Shown: positions 1 to 20,446, numbered from the stretch's first letter. The stretch is DNA of 64,000 nucleotides from a virus (IMGVR_UViG_3300032265_002475:5-64004); one strand, 5' to 3'. A program made the numbers and translations. Notes: generated by a model not told the origin, from the letters alone.

Positions 1-110
1 CCTTTATCTATGATAGTTATTAATTTACCAGGATAACCATTATCTACTAATTTTGTTGCAGCATTAATACCTGCTACTCCTGCTCCAACTATAACTATTT
101 TTTTATTCAT
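1..110 (-). CDS. FAD/NAD(P)-binding oxidoreductase, N-terminal fragment (continues past window start)
   Basis: ATG at 108-110 (rc); translation MNKKIVIVGAGVAGINAATKLVDNGYPGK has Rossmann GxGxxG motif; promoter-like element just upstream. Confidence 0.5.
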   Translation of the reverse strand, partial: MNKKIVIVGAGVAGINAATKLVDNGYPGKLITIIDK

Positions 111-127
111 ATTATTTTAATTCTTTT

Positions 128-160
128 ATAAAGATAAAAAGGAATTTTTGAAAAGCCAAG
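128..160 (-). promoter_or_regulatory. copy of the recurrent promoter element (ataaagata...gaaaagccaa; rc TTGGCTTTTC...TATCTTTAT)
   Basis: same motif as the 18 early-region promoters; sits upstream (minus strand) of the ATG at 110. Confidence 0.4.
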
Positions 161-164
161 AAAG

Positions 165-190
165 AAGGCCCAACTTTTTTAGTTGAGCCG
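165..190 (-). terminator. hairpin terminator after the 795-aa gene
   Basis: ggcccaact-tttttt-agttgagcc imperfect 9-bp stem directly 3' of the stop at 213, followed on the minus strand by a T/C-rich tract. Confidence 0.4.
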
Positions 191-212
191 TTATTTCTAA
201 TTTATATTTATA

Positions 213-2600
213 TTATTGTAATGTTTTTTTATATTTTTTATCTAAAATATCTTTATATTGTGTTGACATATTAGCAGCTAAAGCTATAGCACTTTTTAAA
301 ACTTGTACTCCATTTTTTGTTCTAAATTTAGGATTAATATATGGTAAAATACTATAAATTATAAATTGAGTAAATTCTGTTATATTATTTATTTTTCTTA
401 ATTCATTTCTAAGAATTGAACTTCTTCCTATGTGAGTATAAGCAGTTTTAACATCTGGGAATTTTGTGAATATTTGTTGTACGTTTGCTTCTGTTAAATT
501 ATTAGGAATTGTGTTATTTAAAGTAAATAAAGCACTTCTTACTTTACCTGTATTATCTGCAAATGTTTGATCTGGTGGAAATATAGAGTCACCTTTGGTA
601 TCTCTATAAAGAAATAAAGCTAAAATAAAATTAGCTAATTCATCTTTATTATCTATTCTGTTTAAATATGATTTAAAAGTAGTATCTCCATTTATAGCTT
701 GAGTTACTCTAGTTACATCAGGTTGAATTTTAGTTTTAGTTTTATCAAAACTAGATGTTGGTTGTTTTCCTGGTTCTTGTTTTTGGTCTTTAGATTTTTC
801 ATTTGGAATCTTTTTTCCAACTTTTGAAGCAATTACAGGATATTTTCTTTCAAATATATTCCAACCTGTTTTATATTGATCATTTATAGATACATAATCT
901 ATAGCTCCATTGTCAGGAGCACCCCATGTATAACAATATATTGGAACTAATATTCCTATATTTCCTTTAGCTTTAACTTCATTATATCCAGGAAGACTGA
1001 CAAAATTTGATACAGATGCTTCGGTTAATAAAGAATTATGAATATTAATTAAAGATATTTCTCCTAATTTATTAGTTTCTCCGGGTGATTGAGGACCGGG
1101 GAACGGAATAGAAGTAGGTTCAGAGCCAAGAGTATTAGTTGCTTTTTCTGCCTTTCCAGGTAAAAATCCTCCACTAGGTTGTCCTAATGTAGGAATTTTA
1201 GGATCTAAACTATTTATAAATACTCCAATAGATTTACTATCTCTATCAACAGCAACAGCCCACTTTAAAATATTTTTAAAATCACTTTCTTCTTTTGATT
1301 CTTTTATTTTTTTCTCTAAGTAATCTCTAGTAATAAAAGTATCTTTATTAGCATTTTTAGCATCTTTATTTAACGTAGAAGTAAGTTCTGAAAAGAAAGT
1401 ATTATATGTTGTATCATCAGTAATTAAAGGTAATATATGACCTAAAATGGTATAAAGTTTATTTCCATCAGGTTGAACTACTCTTGGATTTCTTAAATAC
1501 CCAACATCTTCAGGACTTGAAGGTGCTTTAACTGGTGTTTTTTCGTCTGTTTGTAAATTTTTTATAGAAAAAGAAGATGCTTGGTTCTTTTTAGCAGCAT
1601 CAGAATCTTTAGCTACTTCATCTCCAGGATTATCAACATTAGTTCCATCATCTACTATCTTAACTTCAGCTCCTGGGGATTGTGTTTTTATAAGACTACT
1701 TACTTTTTGAGCTAAATTTTTACCTGCTTCTAATCTATCATCACCTAATCCTTTTTCACCAGGACCATTTGGATCATCATCTCCAGTTCCCGGTGTGTTA
1801 GAAATTAATCCTTTAACACTTAATGTTAAAGATTTAATATTTTTACCTCCAGCTTGTTTTATAATTTGATCTGCTATTTTTTTAGCTGTTCCATCTTCAT
1901 CTGATACTTTAAATTCACCTGTATCAAATCCTACTTTAATAGTTTTTCCACTATCTTCAATACTTACAGTATTTGTTGGTATAGTACTTTTTAACAAATC
2001 ACCTGTTAATTTAATATTTTTTTCACTTCCACCAAGATCACTTATTACATTAGAAGCATCACTTACTTTTTCTATTTTAGGAATATCATTACCATTAACA
2101 GCTTGTTTAACTTGATTGTATATTCCAGGATTAGTTGAGTTAATTAATATAGCTAATTTAGCGGCAAGAAGAAGAGTTGAAATTGATTTACTTAAAACAT
2201 TAGCCTCTCCAGTTTTTTTATTTCTAAAAATATCTAATATACCTTCATCTATAGATTCTTTATTAAGTTTAGTATTAAGATAATTATTTATAGATTCTAA
2301 ATCTTTAGGACCATCATAGTTTTCTATAGTGTTAAGAAATAATTCATATTCTTTAGGTTTAAGAATATCTTTAATTGAACTAAAAAGAGAAGCTAATAAT
2401 CCTCCTGTAGGAGAAAGATTGAGTTTTTTTACTTTATTTTTTAATTTTTCTATAAATCCTTCAGATAAATTTTCTTTTAGGATACCTTTAGAATAATAAT
2501 TAGTATGTAAATAATATTCAACTATAGTTTCAACTATTAAATCATTAACATTGTTATTAGATAACCCTGCTAATTCTTGCATTCTGGTAAATTGATTCAT
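213..2600 (-). CDS. large hypothetical protein (795 aa), N-terminal FTRMQELAGL motif, Gly/Pro/Asp-rich centre
   Basis: long ORF; N-terminus MNQFTRMQELAGL matches the motif shared with the three upstream genes. Confidence 0.65.
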   Translation of the reverse strand: MNQFTRMQELAGLSNNNVNDLIVETIVEYYLHTNYYSKGILKENLSEGFIEKLKNKVKKLNLSPTGGLLASLFSSIKDILKPKEYELFLNTIENYDGPKDLESINNYLNTKLNKESIDEGILDIFRNKKTGEANVLSKSISTLLLAAKLAILINSTNPGIYNQVKQAVNGNDIPKIEKVSDASNVISDLGGSEKNIKLTGDLLKSTIPTNTVSIEDSGKTIKVGFDTGEFKVSDEDGTAKKIADQIIKQAGGKNIKSLTLSVKGLISNTPGTGDDDPNGPGEKGLGDDRLEAGKNLAQKVSSLIKTQSPGAEVKIVDDGTNVDNPGDEVAKDSDAAKKNQASSFSIKNLQTDEKTPVKAPSSPEDVGYLRNPRVVQPDGNKLYTILGHILPLITDDTTYNTFFSELTSTLNKDAKNANKDTFITRDYLEKKIKESKEESDFKNILKWAVAVDRDSKSIGVFINSLDPKIPTLGQPSGGFLPGKAEKATNTLGSEPTSIPFPGPQSPGETNKLGEISLINIHNSLLTEASVSNFVSLPGYNEVKAKGNIGILVPIYCYTWGAPDNGAIDYVSINDQYKTGWNIFERKYPVIASKVGKKIPNEKSKDQKQEPGKQPTSSFDKTKTKIQPDVTRVTQAINGDTTFKSYLNRIDNKDELANFILALFLYRDTKGDSIFPPDQTFADNTGKVRSALFTLNNTIPNNLTEANVQQIFTKFPDVKTAYTHIGRSSILRNELRKINNITEFTQFIIYSILPYINPKFRTKNGVQVLKSAIALAANMSTQYKDILDKKYKKTLQ

Positions 2601-2617
2601 TAATTTTTAATTAATTT

Positions 2618-3214
2618 TTAGAAAAACTCAACTACTACTTTATTGTTCTTCATAGTCATAGCCGCTTGTTGACCGTTTACAGTAACATTTAGTCTTTCTT
2701 TATTTTTTATATAATCTACTATTTCTGGGTCTATTTTTTTTAATGAATATTCATAAGTTATATGATCTTCTTCTTCTCCTGGATTATGATTGGATTTTAT
2801 AAAATTTTTAGCTTTATTAATTATATTTGGATCTACCATGTCTTTCATTTCTTTTAATGATTTAGACATTTCTTTTCTTTTATCTGAAATAATTTTAGTA
2901 AGAGCTGCTATTATTTCATTATCTGTTAAAGACTTTTTATTAGTAGTTTGGATTAAATTTATTAAATCTTTTATTAATTCTGCAAATTCAGGAGTGGTGT
3001 CATTAGCTGCTAATTGAGATACTAAAGGTTTTATTTTGTTTATAATAGCAGTAATATTAAAATCTTTTCCTGGTGTTGCTCCTGGAGGGGTATTAGGCTT
3101 AGTATTAGAAAATTGTAATGCTGTATCAGTTGCTTTTTGATCATAAGATTCAGTAATTATACCTGCTAATTTTTGCATACGAATAAATGATTCATTTAAT
3201 GGTTGTTTTTTCAT
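2618..3214 (-). CDS. hypothetical protein with N-terminal ESFIRMQKLAGIITE motif and C-terminal SLKEMKDMVDP module
   Basis: ORF; motif at residues 9-23; C-terminal module repeated in the next gene at protein and DNA level. Confidence 0.6.
   Translation of the reverse strand: MKKQPLNESFIRMQKLAGIITESYDQKATDTALQFSNTKPNTPPGATPGKDFNITAIINKIKPLVSQLAANDTTPEFAELIKDLINLIQTTNKKSLTDNEIIAALTKIISDKRKEMSKSLKEMKDMVDPNIINKAKNFIKSNHNPGEEEDHITYEYSLKKIDPEIVDYIKNKERLNVTVNGQQAAMTMKNNKVVVEFF
2829..2872 (-). repeat. 44-bp DNA repeat (copy 1) encoding SLKEMKDMVDP; second copy at 3808-3851
   Basis: ggatctaccatgtctttcatttcttytaatgattyagacatttc about 90% identical. Confidence 0.7.
3151..3201 (-). repeat. ~50-bp DNA repeat encoding FTRMQKLAGIITE; further copies at 3565-3615 and 4333-4368
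   Basis: cagtaattatacctgctaatttttgcatacgagtaaatgattcatttaatg. Confidence 0.7.
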
Positions 3215-3274
3215 GATTTTGTTTGTTTTATTTACTTCTTTTTTGCTTGATATGACATTATATTAATCGGAGTC

Positions 3275-3994
3275 TTAAATGTTAAATTTAACTTTAATAT
3301 TAGGACCATATTCTTCTCTTGCTGCTTTTGTAAGATCTTCACGGTATTTTTTCGTTCCTTCAGAAGTAATATCTCCATCATCTAACCAACCTGGAAATTC
3401 AGTATCCATATAATCCGCAAAAGCATCATCATCCATGTATTCTATGAATGTATTACTTAAAGGTTCAAATTCACCAAATTCTTTAATATCCCAATCCCAT
3501 ACATTACTTGGAAATACTTCATTTATTTTTTGTTTATAAGATTTTTTTTCTTTATATTCACTTTCAGTAATTATACCTGCTAATTTTTGCATACGAGTAA
3601 ATGATTCATTTAATGATTCGTTTGAAGAATCTAATGCTTCATCAGTAATAGTTGCTTCCATATCGCTTGCTTCTTCAGTATTTTCACTGTCAGTTACAAT
3701 TTCTTTTTTCTTACCTTTATTAGCTTTTTTATCTTTGATTTTTTCAAATTTAGCTTTAGCTTTTTGTAAATCTTTGATTTCTTTTTTTAATTCATTAATT
3801 TTACCTGGATCTACCATGTCTTTCATTTCTTCTAATGATTCAGACATTTCTATTTTCTTTTCGCGTAATGCAATTGCTTCTTCGCATTTTGCAATTTTAG
3901 CGTCCATTGCTGCTGTATCTCCCGCTTCATCAATTTCTTTGATATAATCATGAATTGATTCTTTAATAATCGTTTTGAATATTTTTATGTTCAT
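3275..3994 (-). CDS. hypothetical protein with internal ESFTRMQKLAGIITE motif and acidic C-terminal domain
   Basis: ORF; SLEEMKDMVDP module at the N-terminal part; motif at about residue 150. Confidence 0.6.
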   Translation of the reverse strand: MNIKIFKTIIKESIHDYIKEIDEAGDTAAMDAKIAKCEEAIALREKKIEMSESLEEMKDMVDPGKINELKKEIKDLQKAKAKFEKIKDKKANKGKKKEIVTDSENTEEASDMEATITDEALDSSNESLNESFTRMQKLAGIITESEYKEKKSYKQKINEVFPSNVWDWDIKEFGEFEPLSNTFIEYMDDDAFADYMDTEFPGWLDDGDITSEGTKKYREDLTKAAREEYGPNIKVKFNI

Positions 3995-4039
3995 TTTTGT
4001 TTTATTTTATGTATATAAATATGTTGAAATTTTATTTAA

Positions 4040-5371
4040 TTAATATTCTAATTCTAATTTAATTTTTTTACCATATTTTTTAAATAATTTATACTCTAAA
4101 GTAGCGTATGCATCATCTTGAATTTCTGCAAATAAACCATTATCTTTATCATCATTATCATTATATGTATGACCGTAATTAATTTTAAATATTTCTCCCC
4201 ATGCATCACCCATTTCATCAAAATCAACTACATATGTATCTTCTACTAATTCACCTGTTTTTAATAATTTATCTAATATTTTTTGAATAAGATTATATTT
4301 ATTAGATGAGATAGGTTCTTTTTCAGATATAACTCCTGCTAATTTTTGCATACGAGTAAATTGTTCATCTAAACCTGTCAATCCAGTATCATCTTTAGTT
4401 AAATCACTTTGAATAGAATCCATAGCGTCATTAACCCATTTTATTTGACTAGATGTTAATTTGTTTTTAATTAAATTTTCTATAAATGATTTAAATTCAG
4501 GAGTTTCTAATTTATAAATTTCAGTAAATAAGTATTCTTTAATTCTTTGGTCTGTGTATTTACTTTCTACAAATAATTTATTAATAGCATCATATATAAA
4601 TTTACCAAAACGTAAATCATCTGGTTCATTTTCTAATTTATCAACTTTATCTACTATTTGTTGATTTTTTTCTTTATCAGTTCCAAAACCATGTAATGAA
4701 ATTATTTCATATAATCCTTTAATAATTTCATGAACTAAAAAAGCAAAATTTAAACCCCAAGCTTTAATTACTAATTGATCAGTTTCCTCATCATATCCAC
4801 CTTCAGATTCACCACCTTCTAATTTTTGTTGTTGAGCTAACATTGCTAATAACATAGCTATAGCTTGTTCATCATCATAAATTCCAAAAGCAGCATTTAA
4901 TAATTCATTATATTTTTGTAATAAAGAATCATCAATTGCTTCTAAATAATCTCCAAATAAATTAACAGCATATGCTCCACGAATAGAACTACCTTGAGTA
5001 ATACCATTAATAATACGACGTTTTTCGTCTTCAGGCATTTCTACATCAGAAACTGGTTTGAGTTTACAATTTTTACATCCCATTTCTGAAGGTTTTCCTC
5101 CTATCTTAGCAATAATCTTAATATTTTGATCTTGTATGATAGGGTAAGCTTCTTCTACTAATTGTACAGCTAATGACTCTAATTCAGGTATATAATTACT
5201 TTCAATTTCAGAAATTTCTCCAAGTAAATTTCCAGTTTTTAACATTACTTGTATTAATTGTTCACTTCCTAATAATTTTTTTCTACTTTCAGCAGATTTA
5301 GATTTAAGTATATCAACTACTTCAGATGGAAAAAATTTATCATATTGAGCTTCTTGTAATAGTTTACTCAT
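4040..5371 (-). CDS. hypothetical protein (443 aa) with internal EQFTRMQKLAGVISE motif
   Basis: ORF; motif at about residue 330 followed by an acidic ~95-aa tail resembling that of 3275-3994. Confidence 0.6.
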   Translation of the reverse strand: MSKLLQEAQYDKFFPSEVVDILKSKSAESRKKLLGSEQLIQVMLKTGNLLGEISEIESNYIPELESLAVQLVEEAYPIIQDQNIKIIAKIGGKPSEMGCKNCKLKPVSDVEMPEDEKRRIINGITQGSSIRGAYAVNLFGDYLEAIDDSLLQKYNELLNAAFGIYDDEQAIAMLLAMLAQQQKLEGGESEGGYDEETDQLVIKAWGLNFAFLVHEIIKGLYEIISLHGFGTDKEKNQQIVDKVDKLENEPDDLRFGKFIYDAINKLFVESKYTDQRIKEYLFTEIYKLETPEFKSFIENLIKNKLTSSQIKWVNDAMDSIQSDLTKDDTGLTGLDEQFTRMQKLAGVISEKEPISSNKYNLIQKILDKLLKTGELVEDTYVVDFDEMGDAWGEIFKINYGHTYNDNDDKDNGLFAEIQDDAYATLEYKLFKKYGKKIKLELEY

Positions 5372-5625
5372 TATTTTAATTTTTTATATTTTTGTACAAT
5401 TTTTTTAATAACATCCATTTCATTTTCACGAACAGCTTTAGGTTTTCTTTCAGGAACTATATTAGGATTAGGTGGAGTTAATGTGCGTCTTTTTGGTTCT
5501 ACTGGTGGTTTTCCAGGAATTGTAACAGGTTCACGTGATGGTGATGGTTTTGTTGAAGGTGAATTCATTTTTAATGTTTTACGAATTTCCTCTTTAACCA
5601 TATTTTTAAATTCTGATTGTTTCAT
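5371..5625 (-). CDS. small Pro/Lys-rich hypothetical protein
   Basis: ORF coupled (1-nt overlap) to the downstream gene; N-terminus MKQSEFKNMVKEEI resembles the MKK leader family. Confidence 0.45.
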   Translation of the reverse strand: MKQSEFKNMVKEEIRKTLKMNSPSTKPSPSREPVTIPGKPPVEPKRRTLTPPNPNIVPERKPKAVRENEMDVIKKIVQKYKKLK

Positions 5626-5652
5626 TTGTTTGTTTATTATAAATATGTAATT

Positions 5653-7539
5653 TTAATTAATTATACCTGCTAAATATTTAAATTTATGTTGGTTAGATTT
5701 AAATTCTTGTATATGTTCTTTTAAACCTTGTGATATTTGAGCAGGAGTAAGTTCTATTGTATTATCATAATCATCAACTTTATTAAATGTTAAAGTGTCA
5801 AAATCATTTTCTGTAAAAAACATAGAATTTGAATTTGATGGATAATATCCTGATAAAGAATATTCTTTAACATCTTCACCATTTTTAAGTAAGTCAATAG
5901 TAATAGGATCTATATTTTTGTATAATATTCTTCCAGTTTCATCCATTAAACAGTATGAAGAATCATCATCATATTTTTCATAAGTTATAAAATAATATTT
6001 TCCATTTATAAGTAAAGTAATAGGAATCCCCATTGCTGTAGCTAAGTATTTTTCAGCATTTTTTTTATTTTTACTTATTTGTTTTACAATAGATAAAAAT
6101 TGTTGTTTTTGTTTACTGTCAAATTTATTAAAAGTTTCTGCTGAAATTGGAGATATTACAATTTGTTTTGTTGTTGCTTGTTTAGAAGTTTCATCATTTC
6201 CAAATTCAAATTTACTGTCTGTTGTAAATAATGAGTAAGCTTCATATAACTGTCTTTGTTTACTATCCATGTATCTCGTAGCCTCTTCAGGTAAATATCC
6301 CATTATTTTAATATTATCACTAATATATTGTTTTAATGTATTTTCACCTAAATTATCTTTAATTAAATCATATGTTAATTTATTTTTAAAACTATCATAA
6401 TATTTTAATTTTAAATTTTCAGGTAAAAATTTTAAAAATGGAGTAGGAATAGCTACATCAGGATAACGAGTATATCTATAAATCGGATATCGTTTTAATA
6501 ACGATTGACTATTTTTTAATTCTTCATATGAACATTCTCTATCGTTATTAATTGCTAAATTTTTTAATTCTGTATCTAAAAGTAAGAAAATATCAGTAGG
6601 TATAGTTTTAGCATTATTCTGAACATATAATGTTTTAGTATTATATGATAATGCTTGAAATTGTTCTGGGCTTAAACGTTTTCCTTTTAATGCTTGTAAT
6701 TCTATTTCTTCTGCTTTTGGTTTTACATATGCTATTTTACTTTCTAAAGATTTTAAAGTATTAATTATATCATCAGGTTTATATGATGAATATGTTTTAT
6801 TCATATATGAAAGTAAATTTGAAAAACTAACAGAAGTATTAGGTTCATCATTAGGATCATTATTAGCATTTGTCATTTTATATTTATTATTTTCAAATAC
6901 ATGAATAACAATAGCATGTAATGGATCTTTAAAGCCACCATTTACTTTTTCATCTGAACGATTTCTATCAAATACAAAATAAAACATTCGTGATGCTCCT
7001 TCTCTAAAACGATACGACATGTACATATTTTGAGTATCGGATGCTCTAGATATGCACCAGTTATAATATTCTGGTTTTTCTTTAGCACCATATTTTACAC
7101 AACTATGTTGTTCATCTCCTAAATATACTTCTATACCATTTTGATTATATATTAATTTACCATCAGTATTAACTGAGTTTAATATTTTTGATTGAGCTAG
7201 TTTTTGTTGTTTTTTAGATGAAGGAAAAACATCAATTAGACTTTCAAGATCATTAAATCTATCCCAAAGATAGATATCCATGAATTTATTTTTTTCTTGA
7301 ATATTTCTTGGAATTAAATTTTTAATTTTTTCGTAGTTAGCTAATTTTAATTCATCAGTATCTCCTTCATTTTTTTCAAACATATTTTTGATCTTTGATT
7401 TTAGATCTTCAAATCGTTTTATGTAACTTCTAATAGTGTCTGATTCTAAATTAGGTTGTTGAGATTTATAATGAGCTATTCTATCATTATAAACTTTTTC
7501 ACTATATTCTTTAAGTAATAAATCTGTTAATTTTATCAT
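5653..7539 (-). CDS. MIKL-leader family protein (628 aa); C-terminus ...KFKYLAGIIN
   Basis: N-terminus MIKLTDLLLKEYSEK; C-terminal YLAGII resembles the FTRMQKLAGII motif of the downstream genes. Confidence 0.6.
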   Translation of the reverse strand: MIKLTDLLLKEYSEKVYNDRIAHYKSQQPNLESDTIRSYIKRFEDLKSKIKNMFEKNEGDTDELKLANYEKIKNLIPRNIQEKNKFMDIYLWDRFNDLESLIDVFPSSKKQQKLAQSKILNSVNTDGKLIYNQNGIEVYLGDEQHSCVKYGAKEKPEYYNWCISRASDTQNMYMSYRFREGASRMFYFVFDRNRSDEKVNGGFKDPLHAIVIHVFENNKYKMTNANNDPNDEPNTSVSFSNLLSYMNKTYSSYKPDDIINTLKSLESKIAYVKPKAEEIELQALKGKRLSPEQFQALSYNTKTLYVQNNAKTIPTDIFLLLDTELKNLAINNDRECSYEELKNSQSLLKRYPIYRYTRYPDVAIPTPFLKFLPENLKLKYYDSFKNKLTYDLIKDNLGENTLKQYISDNIKIMGYLPEEATRYMDSKQRQLYEAYSLFTTDSKFEFGNDETSKQATTKQIVISPISAETFNKFDSKQKQQFLSIVKQISKNKKNAEKYLATAMGIPITLLINGKYYFITYEKYDDDSSYCLMDETGRILYKNIDPITIDLLKNGEDVKEYSLSGYYPSNSNSMFFTENDFDTLTFNKVDDYDNTIELTPAQISQGLKEHIQEFKSNQHKFKYLAGIIN

Positions 7540-8207
7540 TTAACTAGTGTATATTTATTATTTATTTTTTTAATTAAATTTTCTATATCACCATATTCTA
7601 CACTTCCTATATTTGCTATTGTAGCATTATTCTTTTTAAATTGATCAAACCCAAATTCATTATTATCTAATGAATTACTTTGATTTAAATAGTTAGCAAA
7701 TTGAACTGCTATTTCCTGTTCTGGGGTTAATTTGTTTACCACATTTTCAATTTTATGTTGTCCTTCAGGTGTTTTTGCTTCAGCAGGTTTAAGTGAACCT
7801 ACTGCTAATAAAGTAGCAGCTACTATTGATCTTAATTTATTATTTTCACTAATAACTACATTTTGATTTACTAAAAAATCTTTAACTTCTTCAATATCAT
7901 CTTTTGCAGTTGCAATATGATCAGAAGCCCAATCATGTCCTTTTGATAATATGTTATCTACTGCTTTTTCATCTAATTGTAACATCTCATCAATTGCATC
8001 TTTAATAGTTTTAAGATTTTGAAAAAACATATAATGAGCACTTTCTTCAGTTAATGATTTTTTAAGATCTTTAACATATTTTTCTTTTTCTTTATTTTGT
8101 TTTTTTGTTAAATGAGTATGTTTAGCTCCTTTAGGAGTTTCAGGTTTACCATATTTAGCTAAATTAGTAGCTAAGGCATACATTAGATTAGTTTTATTTT
8201 TTGACAT
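7536..8207 (-). CDS. hypothetical protein
   Basis: ORF with 4-nt overlap to neighbour. Confidence 0.55.
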   Translation of the reverse strand: MSKNKTNLMYALATNLAKYGKPETPKGAKHTHLTKKQNKEKEKYVKDLKKSLTEESAHYMFFQNLKTIKDAIDEMLQLDEKAVDNILSKGHDWASDHIATAKDDIEEVKDFLVNQNVVISENNKLRSIVAATLLAVGSLKPAEAKTPEGQHKIENVVNKLTPEQEIAVQFANYLNQSNSLDNNEFGFDQFKKNNATIANIGSVEYGDIENLIKKINNKYTLVK

Positions 8208-8209
8208 TT

Positions 8210-9820
8210 TTATTTATTTTTTAATAATACTATATTTCTAGCTATTTCGTCACTAGCTTTATTTCTTTCTTCTTTTGAAGTTTTTAAGTTAGATTTACGC
8301 GCTGAGTTATATCCTCCTCCAAGACTTCCTGTTTTTGCTATATTTAATTTTTTCCAATTCATTTTTTTATCATTTAAATATCCATTTAATATTTCACTTT
8401 CTTTATCAGCAGCTTCATAAGCATTCATAAAGTCAGTTTTTATTATATAATTAATTTGTTCAGAAGTTATTTCAGGATGTTCTTTTAAGAATTTACTAAC
8501 TGCTGTTAATTTATTTTTTTCTTTTTTTAGAATTTCAGGATTTTCTCTAGCTTTAATTGTTTCTTCTTGTTTAATTATTTTTTCTTGATTTTCAATATCT
8601 ACTTTAAAATCATTTAAACTTGATTTATAACTACCTATTTTTATATGTTCTCCATATCGCCTATTAGGATCATTTGTTAAACCTACATAAACTCGATTAT
8701 CTCCATCAACTCCATTTATATTTATAAATTCATAAGCATAAATTAGTTTTTCACTTTGAGGAACGTATTGCATTCCAATATCATTCCAAAAATTTCTTCT
8801 TTGAACATTATTAAAATTTTGTTTTCTCATATATCCTGATATACCGTGATATAACTTTAATGAATAGTCTAATAATTCGTAGATATAATTATTTTTTTCA
8901 AATTCAGGATATACTAATTTAAGTTGTTTTATATGTTCTTTAAAATCTTCTTTAGTATATTTACTCCAATATATTTGAGATTTAAGACCTAGTTTATGCC
9001 AGTTTTGATAATCTTCTCCATCCATTAATGGAAAAATATTTGCTTTAATATAATTGTAAAGAGTATTATCTCCACCTTTTTCTATAGGATCTCTGCTTAA
9101 ATTGGTAGGGTTAGGTTCTTTATCAGGATTTTTTAATTTCCATTTTTTTCTCCAAATTTCAACTGCTTCTTTAGCTTTCTTTATGTCAGTTCCAATAGTT
9201 TTAGAGTATATATTTTCCTCTCTTCCGACAGGAAAACCAAATTTACCCCATTTTAAAAAATCTTCTCCATCCATTAATGGAAAAATATTTGCTTTAATAT
9301 ATTTCCAAAGAGTATTATCTCCACCTTTTTCTTTACTATCACTTTCTAAATTACTAGAAAAAGGTTCTTTTTTATCAGGATTAAATTTTTTCCATTTTTT
9401 TCTCCAAATTTCAACTGCTTCTTTAGCTTTTTCTATGTCAGTTCCAATAGTTTTAGAGTATATATTTTTCTCTCTTACGACAGGAAAACCAAAATCACTC
9501 CACGTTGCTTTTCCGTTATTAATAAAATTTGTTTTAATATATGTCCAAAGAACATTGTTTCCACCTTTTTCTGCAAGATCACTTTTTAAATTACTAGAAG
9601 TAGGTTCTTCTTCTTCATCAGGATTTTTTGATTTCCATTCTGCTCTCCAAGTTTCAATTGCTTCTTTAGCTTTTTCTTCATCAGTCCCGATATAATCATA
9701 TTTTCCTTCATCTAACATACTCTCAATTTCATTAATCTTACGTTCAGCAAGTAATTCAAAATTAGCTGTATTTTTAGAAACAGTAAATAATTCGCGTAGT
9801 AAATTTGTTAACTTAATCAT
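8210..9820 (-). CDS. MIKL-leader protein with three ~85-aa tandem repeats and a C-terminal GIY-YIG-like segment
   Basis: N-terminus MIKLTNLLRELF; three copies of TDxxKAKEAVEIWRKKWK...KGGDNTLWKYIKAN; LIYAYEFININ...NRVYVGLTNDPNRRYGEH resembles GIY...YIG...R...E/H. Confidence 0.55.
   Translation of the reverse strand: MIKLTNLLRELFTVSKNTANFELLAERKINEIESMLDEGKYDYIGTDEEKAKEAIETWRAEWKSKNPDEEEEPTSSNLKSDLAEKGGNNVLWTYIKTNFINNGKATWSDFGFPVVREKNIYSKTIGTDIEKAKEAVEIWRKKWKKFNPDKKEPFSSNLESDSKEKGGDNTLWKYIKANIFPLMDGEDFLKWGKFGFPVGREENIYSKTIGTDIKKAKEAVEIWRKKWKLKNPDKEPNPTNLSRDPIEKGGDNTLYNYIKANIFPLMDGEDYQNWHKLGLKSQIYWSKYTKEDFKEHIKQLKLVYPEFEKNNYIYELLDYSLKLYHGISGYMRKQNFNNVQRRNFWNDIGMQYVPQSEKLIYAYEFININGVDGDNRVYVGLTNDPNRRYGEHIKIGSYKSSLNDFKVDIENQEKIIKQEETIKARENPEILKKEKNKLTAVSKFLKEHPEITSEQINYIIKTDFMNAYEAADKESEILNGYLNDKKMNWKKLNIAKTGSLGGGYNSARKSNLKTSKEERNKASDEIARNIVLLKNK
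9000..9720 (-). repeat. ~255-bp tandem DNA repeats (three copies) inside gene 8210-9820
   Basis: near-identical blocks at about 9128-9300, 9380-9505 and 9610-9700; mirrored by the repeated antisense ORF 9102-9695. Confidence 0.7.
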
Positions 9821-10297: not shown

Positions 10298-11131
10298 TTA
10301 TAAGTTAACTCCTAATCTTTTTACAAATCTTTTATACAAAGTTGGTTTAGTTGACCACATTTTCATCTTCATTAACTCACTCTCATATTCTTGTTCTATC
10401 TTTGGATAATTTTCGGAGGTCCATTCTGCATTAGAAAAAAACCAAGGCATTTGTTCATATTTTTTATCTGCTAATATGTTCTTTATATCTTTAGATTTTA
10501 TATCTGAAAGAAGATTATTTAATAGATTTCTGTAATTAGGATGTTTTTTTATGTTGGTAGTTACTTTGTTAACTAGTGGTGCTGTAAATGCATCAAACTC
10601 CCAAGGTGATTTTATATATTTTTCAAAATTTTTATCAAACTCTGATTTGATAGCTCCTAAATTTGATTTATCTATAGAACGTGCAAATTTATTTCCTAAT
10701 GGTTCTACTCCTTTCTTAGCTATACGTTGATAAACATTATTATTTCTTAATTTAGGATCCATAGCATGAACTAATTCATGTTCTATTGTTTCTTTAAAGT
10801 CTTCATATTCTATAGGATAAGCTAAATTAATTAAAAAAATATCTGCTTGTGTATCCATACGAGCAACACCAGCATCTTTTGGATCATTATAAAATCCTAT
10901 AGTTACTAATAGGTCTTGGTTTTTAAGATCTTTTAATTTAAGATAATTTTTAAATTTAGGATCAATATATGGGTGATTATAATCTAATCCATTTGATTCT
11001 GATTTTAATTTTTCTAAATTTTTAGAAATATAATTATATATCTCTTTAGATTTTGATAAAACTTCCTGAGGAACTTTTACTATATCTTCATTGATATGAA
11101 TTTTTTTTAATATGTCTATAAGTTTAATCAT
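10298..11131 (-). CDS. MIKL-leader protein with HExxH (zinc-metallopeptidase-like) motif
   Basis: start moved to internal ATG at 11129-11131 giving MIKLIDILKK, right after the stop of the upstream gene at 11133; IEHELVHAMDP motif. Confidence 0.5.
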   Translation of the reverse strand: MIKLIDILKKIHINEDIVKVPQEVLSKSKEIYNYISKNLEKLKSESNGLDYNHPYIDPKFKNYLKLKDLKNQDLLVTIGFYNDPKDAGVARMDTQADIFLINLAYPIEYEDFKETIEHELVHAMDPKLRNNNVYQRIAKKGVEPLGNKFARSIDKSNLGAIKSEFDKNFEKYIKSPWEFDAFTAPLVNKVTTNIKKHPNYRNLLNNLLSDIKSKDIKNILADKKYEQMPWFFSNAEWTSENYPKIEQEYESELMKMKMWSTKPTLYKRFVKRLGVNL

Positions 11132-11132
11132 A

Positions 11133-11378
11133 TTATTTATCTTTTTTAGGCATAAACCAGTTTGAACACCATTTTGAAGGATCTTTAATTTGATTGCCTT
11201 CATTGTCTACTAATTCAGCAGTACCCATGTATTTTTGATATTGTTTATTAGAACACATGTGTTTTTCATCTTTCATATAATGAAATTTACAAACATGACA
11301 ACCAAAGCCTATTGGTGAGTACATATAAGGAACATATTGTTCCTCTTTTTTTTCATTTAATAAATCTATTAATTTCAT
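11133..11378 (-). CDS. small Cys/His-rich protein (MKLIDLL leader variant)
   Basis: listed ORF 11133-11507 overlaps the upstream gene by 128 nt; internal Met gives MKLIDLLNEKKEE... starting 2 nt after the upstream stop; CHVCKFH...HMC cluster. Confidence 0.45.
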   Translation of the reverse strand: MKLIDLLNEKKEEQYVPYMYSPIGFGCHVCKFHYMKDEKHMCSNKQYQKYMGTAELVDNEGNQIKDPSKWCSNWFMPKKDK

Positions 11379-20086: not shown

Positions 20087-20446
20087 TTATTTTATTACAT
20101 TACATTCTTTAAAAAATTCTATTAAAGAATTAACTCTATTATTTAAATTGCTTTCTCCAGTCCACCACATATCTTCTAATGAACCATAGTGTGATGTATT
20201 TTTAAAAGCATTTTTAACATCTTTTTTTGTAAATCTTTTTTTTGTACCTCTAGTAATAATATCTAAAAGAACTAAAGCATTTGCTGTATCTTCATCATAA
20301 TCATCTACCCAATAATTAAAAGAAACTTCGGATTTTAGTTCTTTTAATGCCCAAGGTTGACATTCATAGACTGGATTAGCAGAAACTGGTTCTAACTCAT
20401 TTAAAATTTGTTCTCTTATTATTTGCTTTAATTGAGATTTTTTCAT
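20087..20446 (-). CDS. MKK-leader family protein (leader plus ~95-aa cargo)
   Basis: MKKSQLKQIIREQILNELEPV. Confidence 0.55.
   Translation of the reverse strand: MKKSQLKQIIREQILNELEPVSANPVYECQPWALKELKSEVSFNYWVDDYDEDTANALVLLDIITRGTKKRFTKKDVKNAFKNTSHYGSLEDMWWTGESNLNNRVNSLIEFFKECNVIK

Follow-up and report, generated by a model that had tools for sequence, protein, structure and literature searches.

Five neighbouring genes between positions 213 and 7,539 of the 64,000-nucleotide viral DNA stretch IMGVR_UViG_3300032265_002475:5-64004 (the window) encode copies of one short peptide, termed here the tag, which is recognized by the pattern F-x-R-M-Q-x-L-A-G. This tag is borne by more than 100 unrelated proteins of T4-like aquatic phages, and it also forms the last residues of a protein encoded at the position of the T4 scaffold gene. 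The preferred reading, to which a probability of roughly 60% is assigned from sequence comparison and from analogy with known systems, is that the tag is a head-targeting signal taken from the C-terminal capsid-binding peptide of the scaffold and cut off by the prohead protease. Confidence is high for the distribution of the tag, its link to the scaffold and the recombination facts described below, and from these together with the analogies we infer capsid binding, prohead incorporation, cleavage and ejection.

A terminal tag on scaffold-position and unrelated proteins

A degenerate-pattern scan of IMG/VR located the tag in at least 120 viral loci, nearly all of which have a GC content of 0.25-0.40; the class counts given below (59, 57, 56 and 40) are those among the matches listed. 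A hidden Markov model (HMM) of the tag identified 161 copies in 1.16 Mb of related DNA, comprising 83 N-terminal, 67 C-terminal and 11 internal copies. The N-terminal class consists of at least 59 distinct proteins of 25-357 amino acids with unrelated bodies and follows the consensus MKKQIL(N/S)EEFxRMQKLAG(I/L)ITE, with the initiating Met mostly two to nine residues ahead of the F and with stop codons closely upstream. The C-terminal class consists of at least 57 distinct proteins that have the tag as their last residues, with the consensus ...KQPI(I/V)E(S/V)N(D/E)AFxRMQKLAGII(K) ending at the stop codon; the 16-mer form of the peptide is SNDAFLRMQKLAGIIK. No common Pfam or PHROG family was found among 66 proteins (57 tagged proteins and nine fusion proteins), and almost all of the bodies attached to the tag, the putative cargo, match no described family in these databases. 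The tag peptide strings were not found in the published literature searched, approximately 8 million papers. The specific tag pattern gave 0 matches in 185,579 bacterial and archaeal genomes, on which count a cellular origin or a prophage reservoir of the tag was rejected. Among 50,697 deposited phage genomes, N-terminal copies occur only in Flavobacterium phage immuto, and immuto and Microcystis phage Mel-JY01 are the only cultured carriers of the tag.

The proteins of the C-terminal class start with MxxNRxLLKEAIADAK, have a very acidic middle region and contain a conserved NLLNAKLLYTNKIFK box. The gene order in immuto is TerL, the gp20 portal protein, three genes, the prohead protease, two small genes, the tagged gene and the gp23 capsid protein, and between the protease and gp23 the tagged gene takes the place that gene 22 has in T4. 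The immuto protease belongs to Peptidase_S77 (PF03420, 8.9e-35) and its capsid protein to the Pfam family Gp23 (6e-84). By tblastn, a gp23 homologue adjoins the tagged gene in at least 56 IMG/VR loci and a protease homologue directly precedes it in at least 40. Because of this synteny and of its composition, the protein encoded here is named as the predicted scaffold. Variants of the tag end the scaffolds of immuto (...VSRWQKLAGIIK, with W in place of M), of Mel-JY01 (...VVERMKKLAGIVK) and of the IMG/VR locus L033 (...AFARMRELAGLKK), all three of which were missed by the strict pattern. Throughout the 190-kb genome of Mel-JY01 the tag is found on the scaffold only, and for this reason the scaffold copy looks primary and the other copies derived.

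Some further features of the scaffold-position proteins may be recorded. The immuto gene (NC_055915 125626-126867, L121:8095-9336) is annotated as 'DNA polymerase phi-like', a label that is probably an artefact of the acidic low-complexity region. The sole local alignment to T4 gp22 pairs KNLTESQKVKV with KDLTESQKEKV and is statistically weak. Scaffolds such as L128:8118-8927 contain KAKNLTESQKVKVL, which weakly matches STKDLTESQKEKVSA of gp22 about 75 residues from both C-termini, and the gp22 end ...AKVASRF is loosely like ...QKLAGIIK.

Sites of the (L/I)xE type accompany the tag in both classes. The residue at position +12 is E, giving I-T-E, in 43 of the 59 N-terminal copies; a [LIVM]xE motif lies no more than eight residues after the tag in 51/59, and an L-x-E motif ends two residues ahead of the F in 35/59. 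Of the 57 scaffold-type copies, 49 are preceded by a site three or four residues upstream. The motif [LI]xE occurs in the window proteome at a background rate of 1.6% per position. The predicted cut upstream of the scaffold tag would produce a terminal peptide of approximately 16 residues, SNDAFxRMQKLAGIIK.

Across 116 copies of the tag, Arg is encoded by AGA (67), CGT (33), CGC (10), AGG (4) and CGA (2), and five Leu, four Ala and four Gly codons are in use. Since synonymous codons vary freely while the residues are fixed, selection acts on the peptide and not on the DNA. Persistence of the tag is seen in two protein families represented in the window by proteins of 795 and 628 residues. The 795-residue family (23 proteins) retains the N-terminal tag down to a body identity of 32%, with some members carrying a second tag or being fused to the family of the 443-residue protein of the window. 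Orthologues of the 628-residue protein, which are 29-50% identical, mostly end in ...(L/I)xE...[KR]x[KQ]x[LA][AS]G[IL][IL][KR] at the stop codon, and this family retains the C-terminal tag down to approximately 30% identity.

In the mechanism proposed, the tag would comprise approximately 14-22 residues, with an (L/I)xE site followed by xFxRMQKLAGII and then by T-E or the chain end. It would have originated as the extreme C-terminus of the gp22-position scaffold in low-GC, mostly uncultured T4-like aquatic myoviruses, where it would form a short helix and an I-I-K hook, with the inner surface of the gp23-type capsid protein as the docking site. Accessory proteins bearing the tag at either end would have been co-opted to join prohead assembly. 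The S77/gp21-type protease would then cut the flanking (L/I)xE sites, by which the tag would be lost and the mature cargo would stay in the capsid, presumably to be ejected into the host along with the DNA. Modules would be shuffled because neighbouring genes share tag-coding DNA, and recombination between such genes would fuse, split and swap them. The two internal copies in the window would represent fusion junctions, and cleavage on both sides of the tag would separate the joined parts.

Tag copies and module exchange in the window

The window has a GC content of 25%, encodes all of its genes on the minus strand and derives from a myovirus-type phage that carries a baseplate wedge protein, a primase and leucine-rich repeat (LRR) proteins. 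The tag pattern occurs four times in 213-5371, against 0.00 expected for the degenerate DNA pattern in 100 shuffles. A six-frame search found no further copies in the 64 kb, and the tag HMM returned four strong matches only, identical to the pattern copies. Copy 1 (2562-2600, minus strand, as are all copies and genes of the cluster; MNQFTRMQELAGL) forms the N-terminus of the 795-residue protein (213-2600), a putative cargo protein without a Pfam or PHROG family. Copy 2 (3149-3199; LNESFIRMQKLAGIITE) stands between L-N-E and I-T-E at the N-terminus of the 198-residue protein (2618-3214), which starts with MKKQPLNESFIRMQKLAGIITE. This copy conforms to the N-terminal class consensus, and the body behind it corresponds to the C-terminal half of a 320-residue protein from the related locus L125. 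Copy 3 (3563-3613; LNESFTRMQKLAGIITE) is internal and covers residues 128-144 (SLNESFTRMQKLAGIITE) of the 239-residue protein (3275-3994), between an N-terminal module (residues 1-127) and a 95-residue acidic domain (nt 3278-3562). Copy 4 (4322-4372; LDEQFTRMQKLAGVISE) is also internal and covers residues 334-350 (GLDEQFTRMQKLAGVISE) of the 443-residue protein (4040-5371), between a conserved 333-residue core and a 93-residue acidic domain (nt 4043-4321). The brackets of the three canonical copies are L-N-E/I-T-E twice and L-D-E/I-S-E once. The degenerate copy 5 (5656-5688), HKFKYLAGIIN, is the extreme C-terminus of the 628-residue protein (5653-7539), which also has the N-terminal leader MIKLTDLLLKE; it is counted as a tag because the orthologue C-termini are conserved. 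A LAGI match at 56-76 was rejected as a further copy, as it is the Rossmann GxGxxG motif of the next gene.

The DNA encoding the tag is itself repeated. A 76-nt direct repeat (3134-3209, partner 3548-3623; 86% identical) encodes copies 2 and 3, while a third member (4307-4382) has 62% identity to the other two, and a 26-nt core shows no differences among the three copies. An 80-nt repeat (2805-2884, partner 3783-3862; 84% identical) encodes a SL(K/E)EMKDMVDP module of the 198- and 239-residue proteins. An earlier reading of the window made without database searches, the sequence-only reading, had described the motif at these sites in all five proteins (two N-terminal, two internal and one C-terminal), its near-identical DNA repeats, the ending I-(T/S)-E in three copies and the module common to the two proteins, all of which were found again. 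Its assignment of KFKYLAGIIN at the end of 5653-7539 as a motif copy is backed by the conserved orthologue C-termini. The acidic tails of approximately 95 residues that it noted are present behind both internal copies, but kinship between them was not detectable after removal of the tag (E = 0.26). The two tails were rejected as homologues, their apparent similarity having arisen because the tag itself was included.

The colinearity of the window DNA with its relatives breaks inside or at the edge of tags, at 4332, 3563 and 3204. In the core of the 443-residue protein, L125 and L126 exhibit 87% protein identity to the window (approximately 90% at the DNA level) and L123 exhibits 77% (approximately 78%). 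Colinearity ends in copy 4 at 4332 with L125 and at 4334 with L123, and at copy 3 at 3563 and 3562 respectively; with L125 it resumes from 3204, in the gene of the 198-residue protein. The 320-residue protein of L125 consists of residues 1-145 of the 239-residue protein and residues 4-198 of the 198-residue protein, joined through one tag, and the latter residues are 92.8% identical to residues 126-320 of L125_320. The window contains, instead of this single gene, a pair of genes with the tag duplicated and an acidic domain added. Recombination between 3134-3209 and 3548-3623 would yield a single 320-residue gene as in L125. The acidic domain of the 239-residue protein (nt 3278-3562) is absent from both L125 and L123. 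Homologues of the N-terminal module of this protein carry the tag at their end in L047 and internally in L114 and L123_647.

A similar pattern is observed for the 443-residue protein, the core of which stops right after the tag in all of the closest relatives, and the acidic domain is not present in them. Where the cores align, the protein P0022 shows 96% identity, but it has another domain behind the tag. The family has more than 1267 homologues, the distant members of which end in ...DDTGLxGL(DE) or continue past L-D-E into various unrelated domains, and one of these domains recurs as a stand-alone N-terminally tagged protein. P0135 is composed of a 443-family core, a tag and a 795-family body, P0163 and P0174 join a 443-family core to a 628-family body, and P0130, P0124 and P0057 each contain two tags. 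These fusions among the 443-, 628- and 795-residue families suggest that the three act in the same place, and the internal tags are best read as scars of the fusion of a C-terminally tagged gene with an N-terminally tagged gene. The sequence-only reading had considered a linker that enables domain shuffling, and both the breakpoints against L125 and L123 within the tag and the fusion of separate families at the tag argue for such a role. Four members of the 443-residue family (P0063 and P0071/P0072/P0079) continue past L-D-E with what resembles a complete signal-peptide or lipoprotein-like start (...INMKKIIGTAALAAGLAGSPNMAQAQ...), which suggests that the gene of a secreted protein lying downstream was fused to them by read-through. 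When IMG/VR was scanned with the 628- or the 443-residue protein singly, no relatives were returned.

An open reading frame (ORF) at the left end of the window (1-109, minus strand, running off the end; MNKKIVIVGAGVAGINAATKL...) encodes an FAD/NAD oxidoreductase of the Rossmann type, similar to that of the Pyr_redox_2 gene of L123, and it matches the gene found behind the tag cluster of that locus. In L123, TerL and the T4-type portal gene follow the tag cluster at a distance of 4-8 kb downstream, an arrangement that is the same in many IMG/VR loci with N-terminal tags. The portal protein of L123 is 65-72% identical to those of loci with tagged scaffolds and approximately 60% identical to that of immuto. 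In L001 and L033, N-terminally tagged genes are located between the protease and scaffold genes. An HNH-type endonuclease-like ORF (L001:10754-11356) is situated between N-terminally tagged genes and the scaffold gene in the head module of L001. Searches with the window itself were otherwise negative: Pfam and PHROGs gave nothing meaningful and no common family for the five tagged proteins and three neighbours, BLASTN of positions 1-8000 against the 50,697 phage genomes gave no match, and an exact look-up of the 795-residue protein gave no record. The window has no excess of the T4 late-promoter motif TATAAATA (42 versus 34 ± 6), and none is found upstream of the cluster genes.

Known systems and alternative explanations

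The prohead protease gp21 of T4 cuts after L/I-x-E and strips an N-terminal capsid-targeting sequence (CTS) off the internal proteins (PMC9026906; for the specificity of gp21 and the CTS see also PMC3012670). Like the CTS of IPI, IPII, IPIII and Alt, the tag is a short, conserved peptide at the terminus of accessory proteins that are otherwise unrelated and evolve fast, and it has an (L/I)-x-E site at its end. Its carriers are encoded in variable regions of T4-like phages whose protease is of the S77, whose portal is of the gp20 and whose capsid protein is of the gp23 type. Unlike the 10-residue CTS, the tag is longer and unrelated in sequence, would work at both termini and is the same as the scaffold C-terminus; it also has protease sites on both sides and far more carriers per genome. 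The CTS of T4 is MKTYQEFIAE, which has no resemblance to FxRMQKLAGIITE, and the C-terminus of T4 gp22 reads ...VYAKVASRF.

The scaffold of phage 80alpha and the CpmB protein of SaPI1 have in common a 16-residue C-terminal helix-and-hook with the sequence RIIK that binds the capsid protein (PMC5644958; PDB 6B0X, 6B23). The last 16 or so residues of the tagged scaffold would likewise form a short helix and a hook ending in I-I-K, and a second, unrelated protein bears the same peptide, which in CpmB serves to reach the same capsid site. The 80alpha-type element has an amphipathic helix of approximately 11 residues and a hook of approximately five, beside a tag tail of 16 residues with an I-I-K end. 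The AlphaFold2 (AF2) model of the 628-residue protein ends with a helix (residues 599-623) followed by a five-residue coil, AGIIN. A capsid-binding tag is proposed because the length and I-I-K end of the scaffold tail match 80alpha and because this model ends in helix and coil. The two systems differ in that they have no detectable homology and a different spacing from Ala to I-I. Furthermore, the head of the siphovirus 80alpha is HK97-like, CpmB serves a parasite as a size-redirecting scaffold and is not cargo, and the tag peptide is also located at N-termini, where it is followed by a protease site.

The C-terminal end of the P22 scaffold is a coat-binding element as well (bioRxiv 10.1101/2022.12.13.520362). 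This helix-turn-helix domain is a two-helix fold of approximately 30 residues and, unlike what is proposed for the tag, is not removed by proteolysis. Cargo fused to the C-terminus of the P22 scaffold is loaded into P22 shells, and we know of no natural cargo family that borrows this coat-binding domain. In polymorphic toxins, junction motifs such as the VENN of CdiA form a peptide and DNA border for the exchange of C-terminal modules. The tag similarly marks a module-swap border, but in contrast to the motifs of these secreted bacterial toxins it is also a stand-alone terminal tag and is present on a phage scaffold. Encapsulins use short C- or N-terminal cargo-loading peptides to send diverse cargo inside an HK97-fold shell (PMC8346489, PMC11866011). 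They are cellular compartments without DNA, scaffold or protease, the consensus of their peptides differs from the tag, and no encapsulin gene was found here.

Several observations weigh against the head-targeting reading. The window, which is essentially the whole of a 64,004-bp contig, contains no portal, protease, scaffold or capsid gene; its phage very probably has a tagged scaffold as well, since the portal identities of L123, the IMG/VR loci and immuto bracket it, but the head genes are not in the contig. The assignment of the C-terminal-class protein as a putative scaffold, made from synteny and composition, has no family match to accompany it: PHROGs and Pfam gave no hits for the scaffold-type proteins, two scaffold-position proteins did not match Pfam T4_CASP (PF25623) at E ≤ 1 where T4 gp22 itself scores 6.8e-89, and hhalign of scaffold-position proteins against gp22 gave a probability of 5%. 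With the scaffold tail as query, phmmer gave no hit at E ≤ 10 among all PDB chains, the 80alpha scaffold and CpmB included, and the tag, taken as a helix, has a hydrophobic moment that does not exceed that of shuffled sequences. For the 443-residue protein, the AF2 model has a predicted local distance difference test (pLDDT) score of 62 overall and below 50 in the tag. The 795-residue family is without I-T-E directly after the tag, and a literature search found no proteomics on immuto virions. In addition, the capsid protein, the scaffold core or the portal could each be the partner of the tag.

The sequence-only reading had suggested a docking or processing motif of virion proteins, and the scaffold-position C-terminus, the S77/gp21-type protease and the flanking (L/I)xE sites support this suggestion, with docking being the predicted part. 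The wider motif search that it called for found no other copy in the 64 kb, yet at least 120 viral loci elsewhere. Pfam and PHROG do not place the motif in any known conserved domain, and it is spread over unrelated proteins and diverged orthologues rather than being confined to recent paralogues. Structure prediction around the motif, which it also proposed, gave a helix and coil at the end of the 628-residue protein and a low pLDDT at the tag of the 443-residue protein. A Foldseek search of the 443-residue protein against BFVD and PDB was uninformative, and a fold search with the 628-residue protein was likewise so.

A rather unlikely alternative is that the tag targets the prohead by self-association or core binding (to the tag, scaffold body, portal or protease), with the cargo co-polymerizing with the core. 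This would follow the T4 precedent, in which the internal proteins co-purify with gp22 and an affinity for the core is ascribed to the CTS (PMC9026906), and the presence of the tag on both scaffold and cargo fits homotypic pairing as well as competition for one site. The two-tag proteins P0130, P0124 and P0057 are in line with such pairing too. However, the extreme C-terminal place of the tag, the length of approximately 16 residues that the predicted cut would leave and the IIK end match the hook of the 80alpha scaffold and CpmB. The scaffold of Mel-JY01 is tagged in a genome without tagged cargo, and because the tag is retained there, it appears to function within scaffold and capsid assembly itself.

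Still less probable is a docking peptide for a partner outside the head, such as a chaperone, a membrane site, a replication factor or a host or phage AAA+ protease, for which last the tag would be a degron, with the capsid gene as an incidental neighbour. Degrons and adaptor-binding tags typically work at either terminus, and the tagged 131-residue gene of immuto (NC_055915 25061-25456) is located amid metabolic or early-looking genes, outside the head module. This explanation does not sit well with the at least 57 distinct scaffold-position proteins that end in the tag, with the tagged genes inserted between the protease and scaffold genes of L001 and L033, or with the tag clusters that closely precede TerL and the portal gene. 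The flanking sites also match the specificity of the encoded protease family, and the 0 copies in 185,579 cellular genomes indicate that the tag is not a mimic of a common cellular motif. A tag without any peptide function, being a DNA recombination or cassette site or the result of very recent paralogue duplication, is highly improbable: the breakpoints in the tag against L125 and L123, the 76-nt direct repeats and the same synonymous codons in three window copies, including the rarer CGT for Arg, would fit it, but synonymous sites are free and amino acids fixed across the 116 copies, and since the tag is placed at exact chain ends and is kept in orthologues with bodies at 30-40% identity and in phages with portals only approximately 60% identical, recombination is a consequence of the shared tag and not its reason.

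Other leaders, candidate cargo and implications

Two further leader peptides are present in the window. The first, M-I-K-L-(T/I)-(D/N)-(I/L)-L-K-E (MIKLTDLLKE), is 10 residues long, with L-x-E last, and forms the leader of at least seven unrelated window proteins, including the 628-residue protein and a 536-residue protein, with gene starts at 7539, 9820, 11760, 12276, 12668 and 39212 and at an internal Met in 10298-11203. The same leader heads 46 proteins in related loci and is found in L002, L015, L048, L123, L125 and the immuto locus L122. The scaffold N-terminus, MSNNRDLLKE, is similar to it, and its form is like that of the T4 CTS. The other leader, M-K-K-(S/H)-E-L-K-Q-(L/I)-I-K-E-Q-I-L-A-E-L-E-P (MKKSELKQLIKE), holds I-K-E and L-A-E sites. 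It is featured in a tandem gene array that includes two LRR proteins, with gene starts at 20446, 40210, 41042, 41626, 42165, 42776, 43159, 44510 and 44866 and a weaker one at 5625, and it also occurs in L080, L088, L103, L119 and L125. Both leaders look more like the T4 CTS than the tag does. The 536-residue protein (8210-9820; leader MIKLTNLLRE) contains three repeats of approximately 85 residues (...IGTDIEKAKEAVEIWRKKWK...GGDNTLW.YIKAN...). One of its segments is weakly GIY-YIG-like (phrog_5123, E = 0.004).

One of the tagged proteins in the related loci has a recognizable body. The 187-residue 2H phosphoesterase L059:4266-4826 starts with MENQEFKRMQKLAGLIVEE, an N-terminal tag followed by I-V-E, and matches Pfam Acb1, directed against the cyclic oligonucleotide-based antiphage signalling system (anti-CBASS), with 29.1 bits against a threshold of 27. 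A hint that the delivered proteins may include anti-defence enzymes comes from this tagged Acb1-like protein. A broader proposal, put forward tentatively and with less than even odds, is that the tag belongs to a natural cargo-loading system of this abundant and nearly all uncultured phage group, in which the scaffold peptide would serve as a universal label for cargo, including anti-defence cargo, and that together with the other leaders a sizeable fraction of the accessory proteins would be delivered by the virion. On this view dozens of rapidly shuffled effectors, labelled at one end or the other, would be loaded into the head beforehand, trimmed by the prohead protease and injected along with the DNA, and the tag would be the phage counterpart of the encapsulin cargo-loading peptide.

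In the literature consulted, capsid-targeting peptides are described only for T4 and phages close to it, where few proteins carry them. The present tag is defined by sequence, would be usable at both termini, is shared with the scaffold, occurs on more than 100 unrelated proteins of a phage group abundant in the environment, and doubles as a shuffling junction. If the head-targeting reading is true, the injected protein arsenal of uncultured phages would be readable from metagenomes, and the recruitment of an internal protein would amount to gaining a scaffold tail, which would explain the quick shuffling of these proteins. Anti-defence enzymes may then be delivered pre-made, and the tag would offer a compact means of loading foreign proteins into T4-like capsids.

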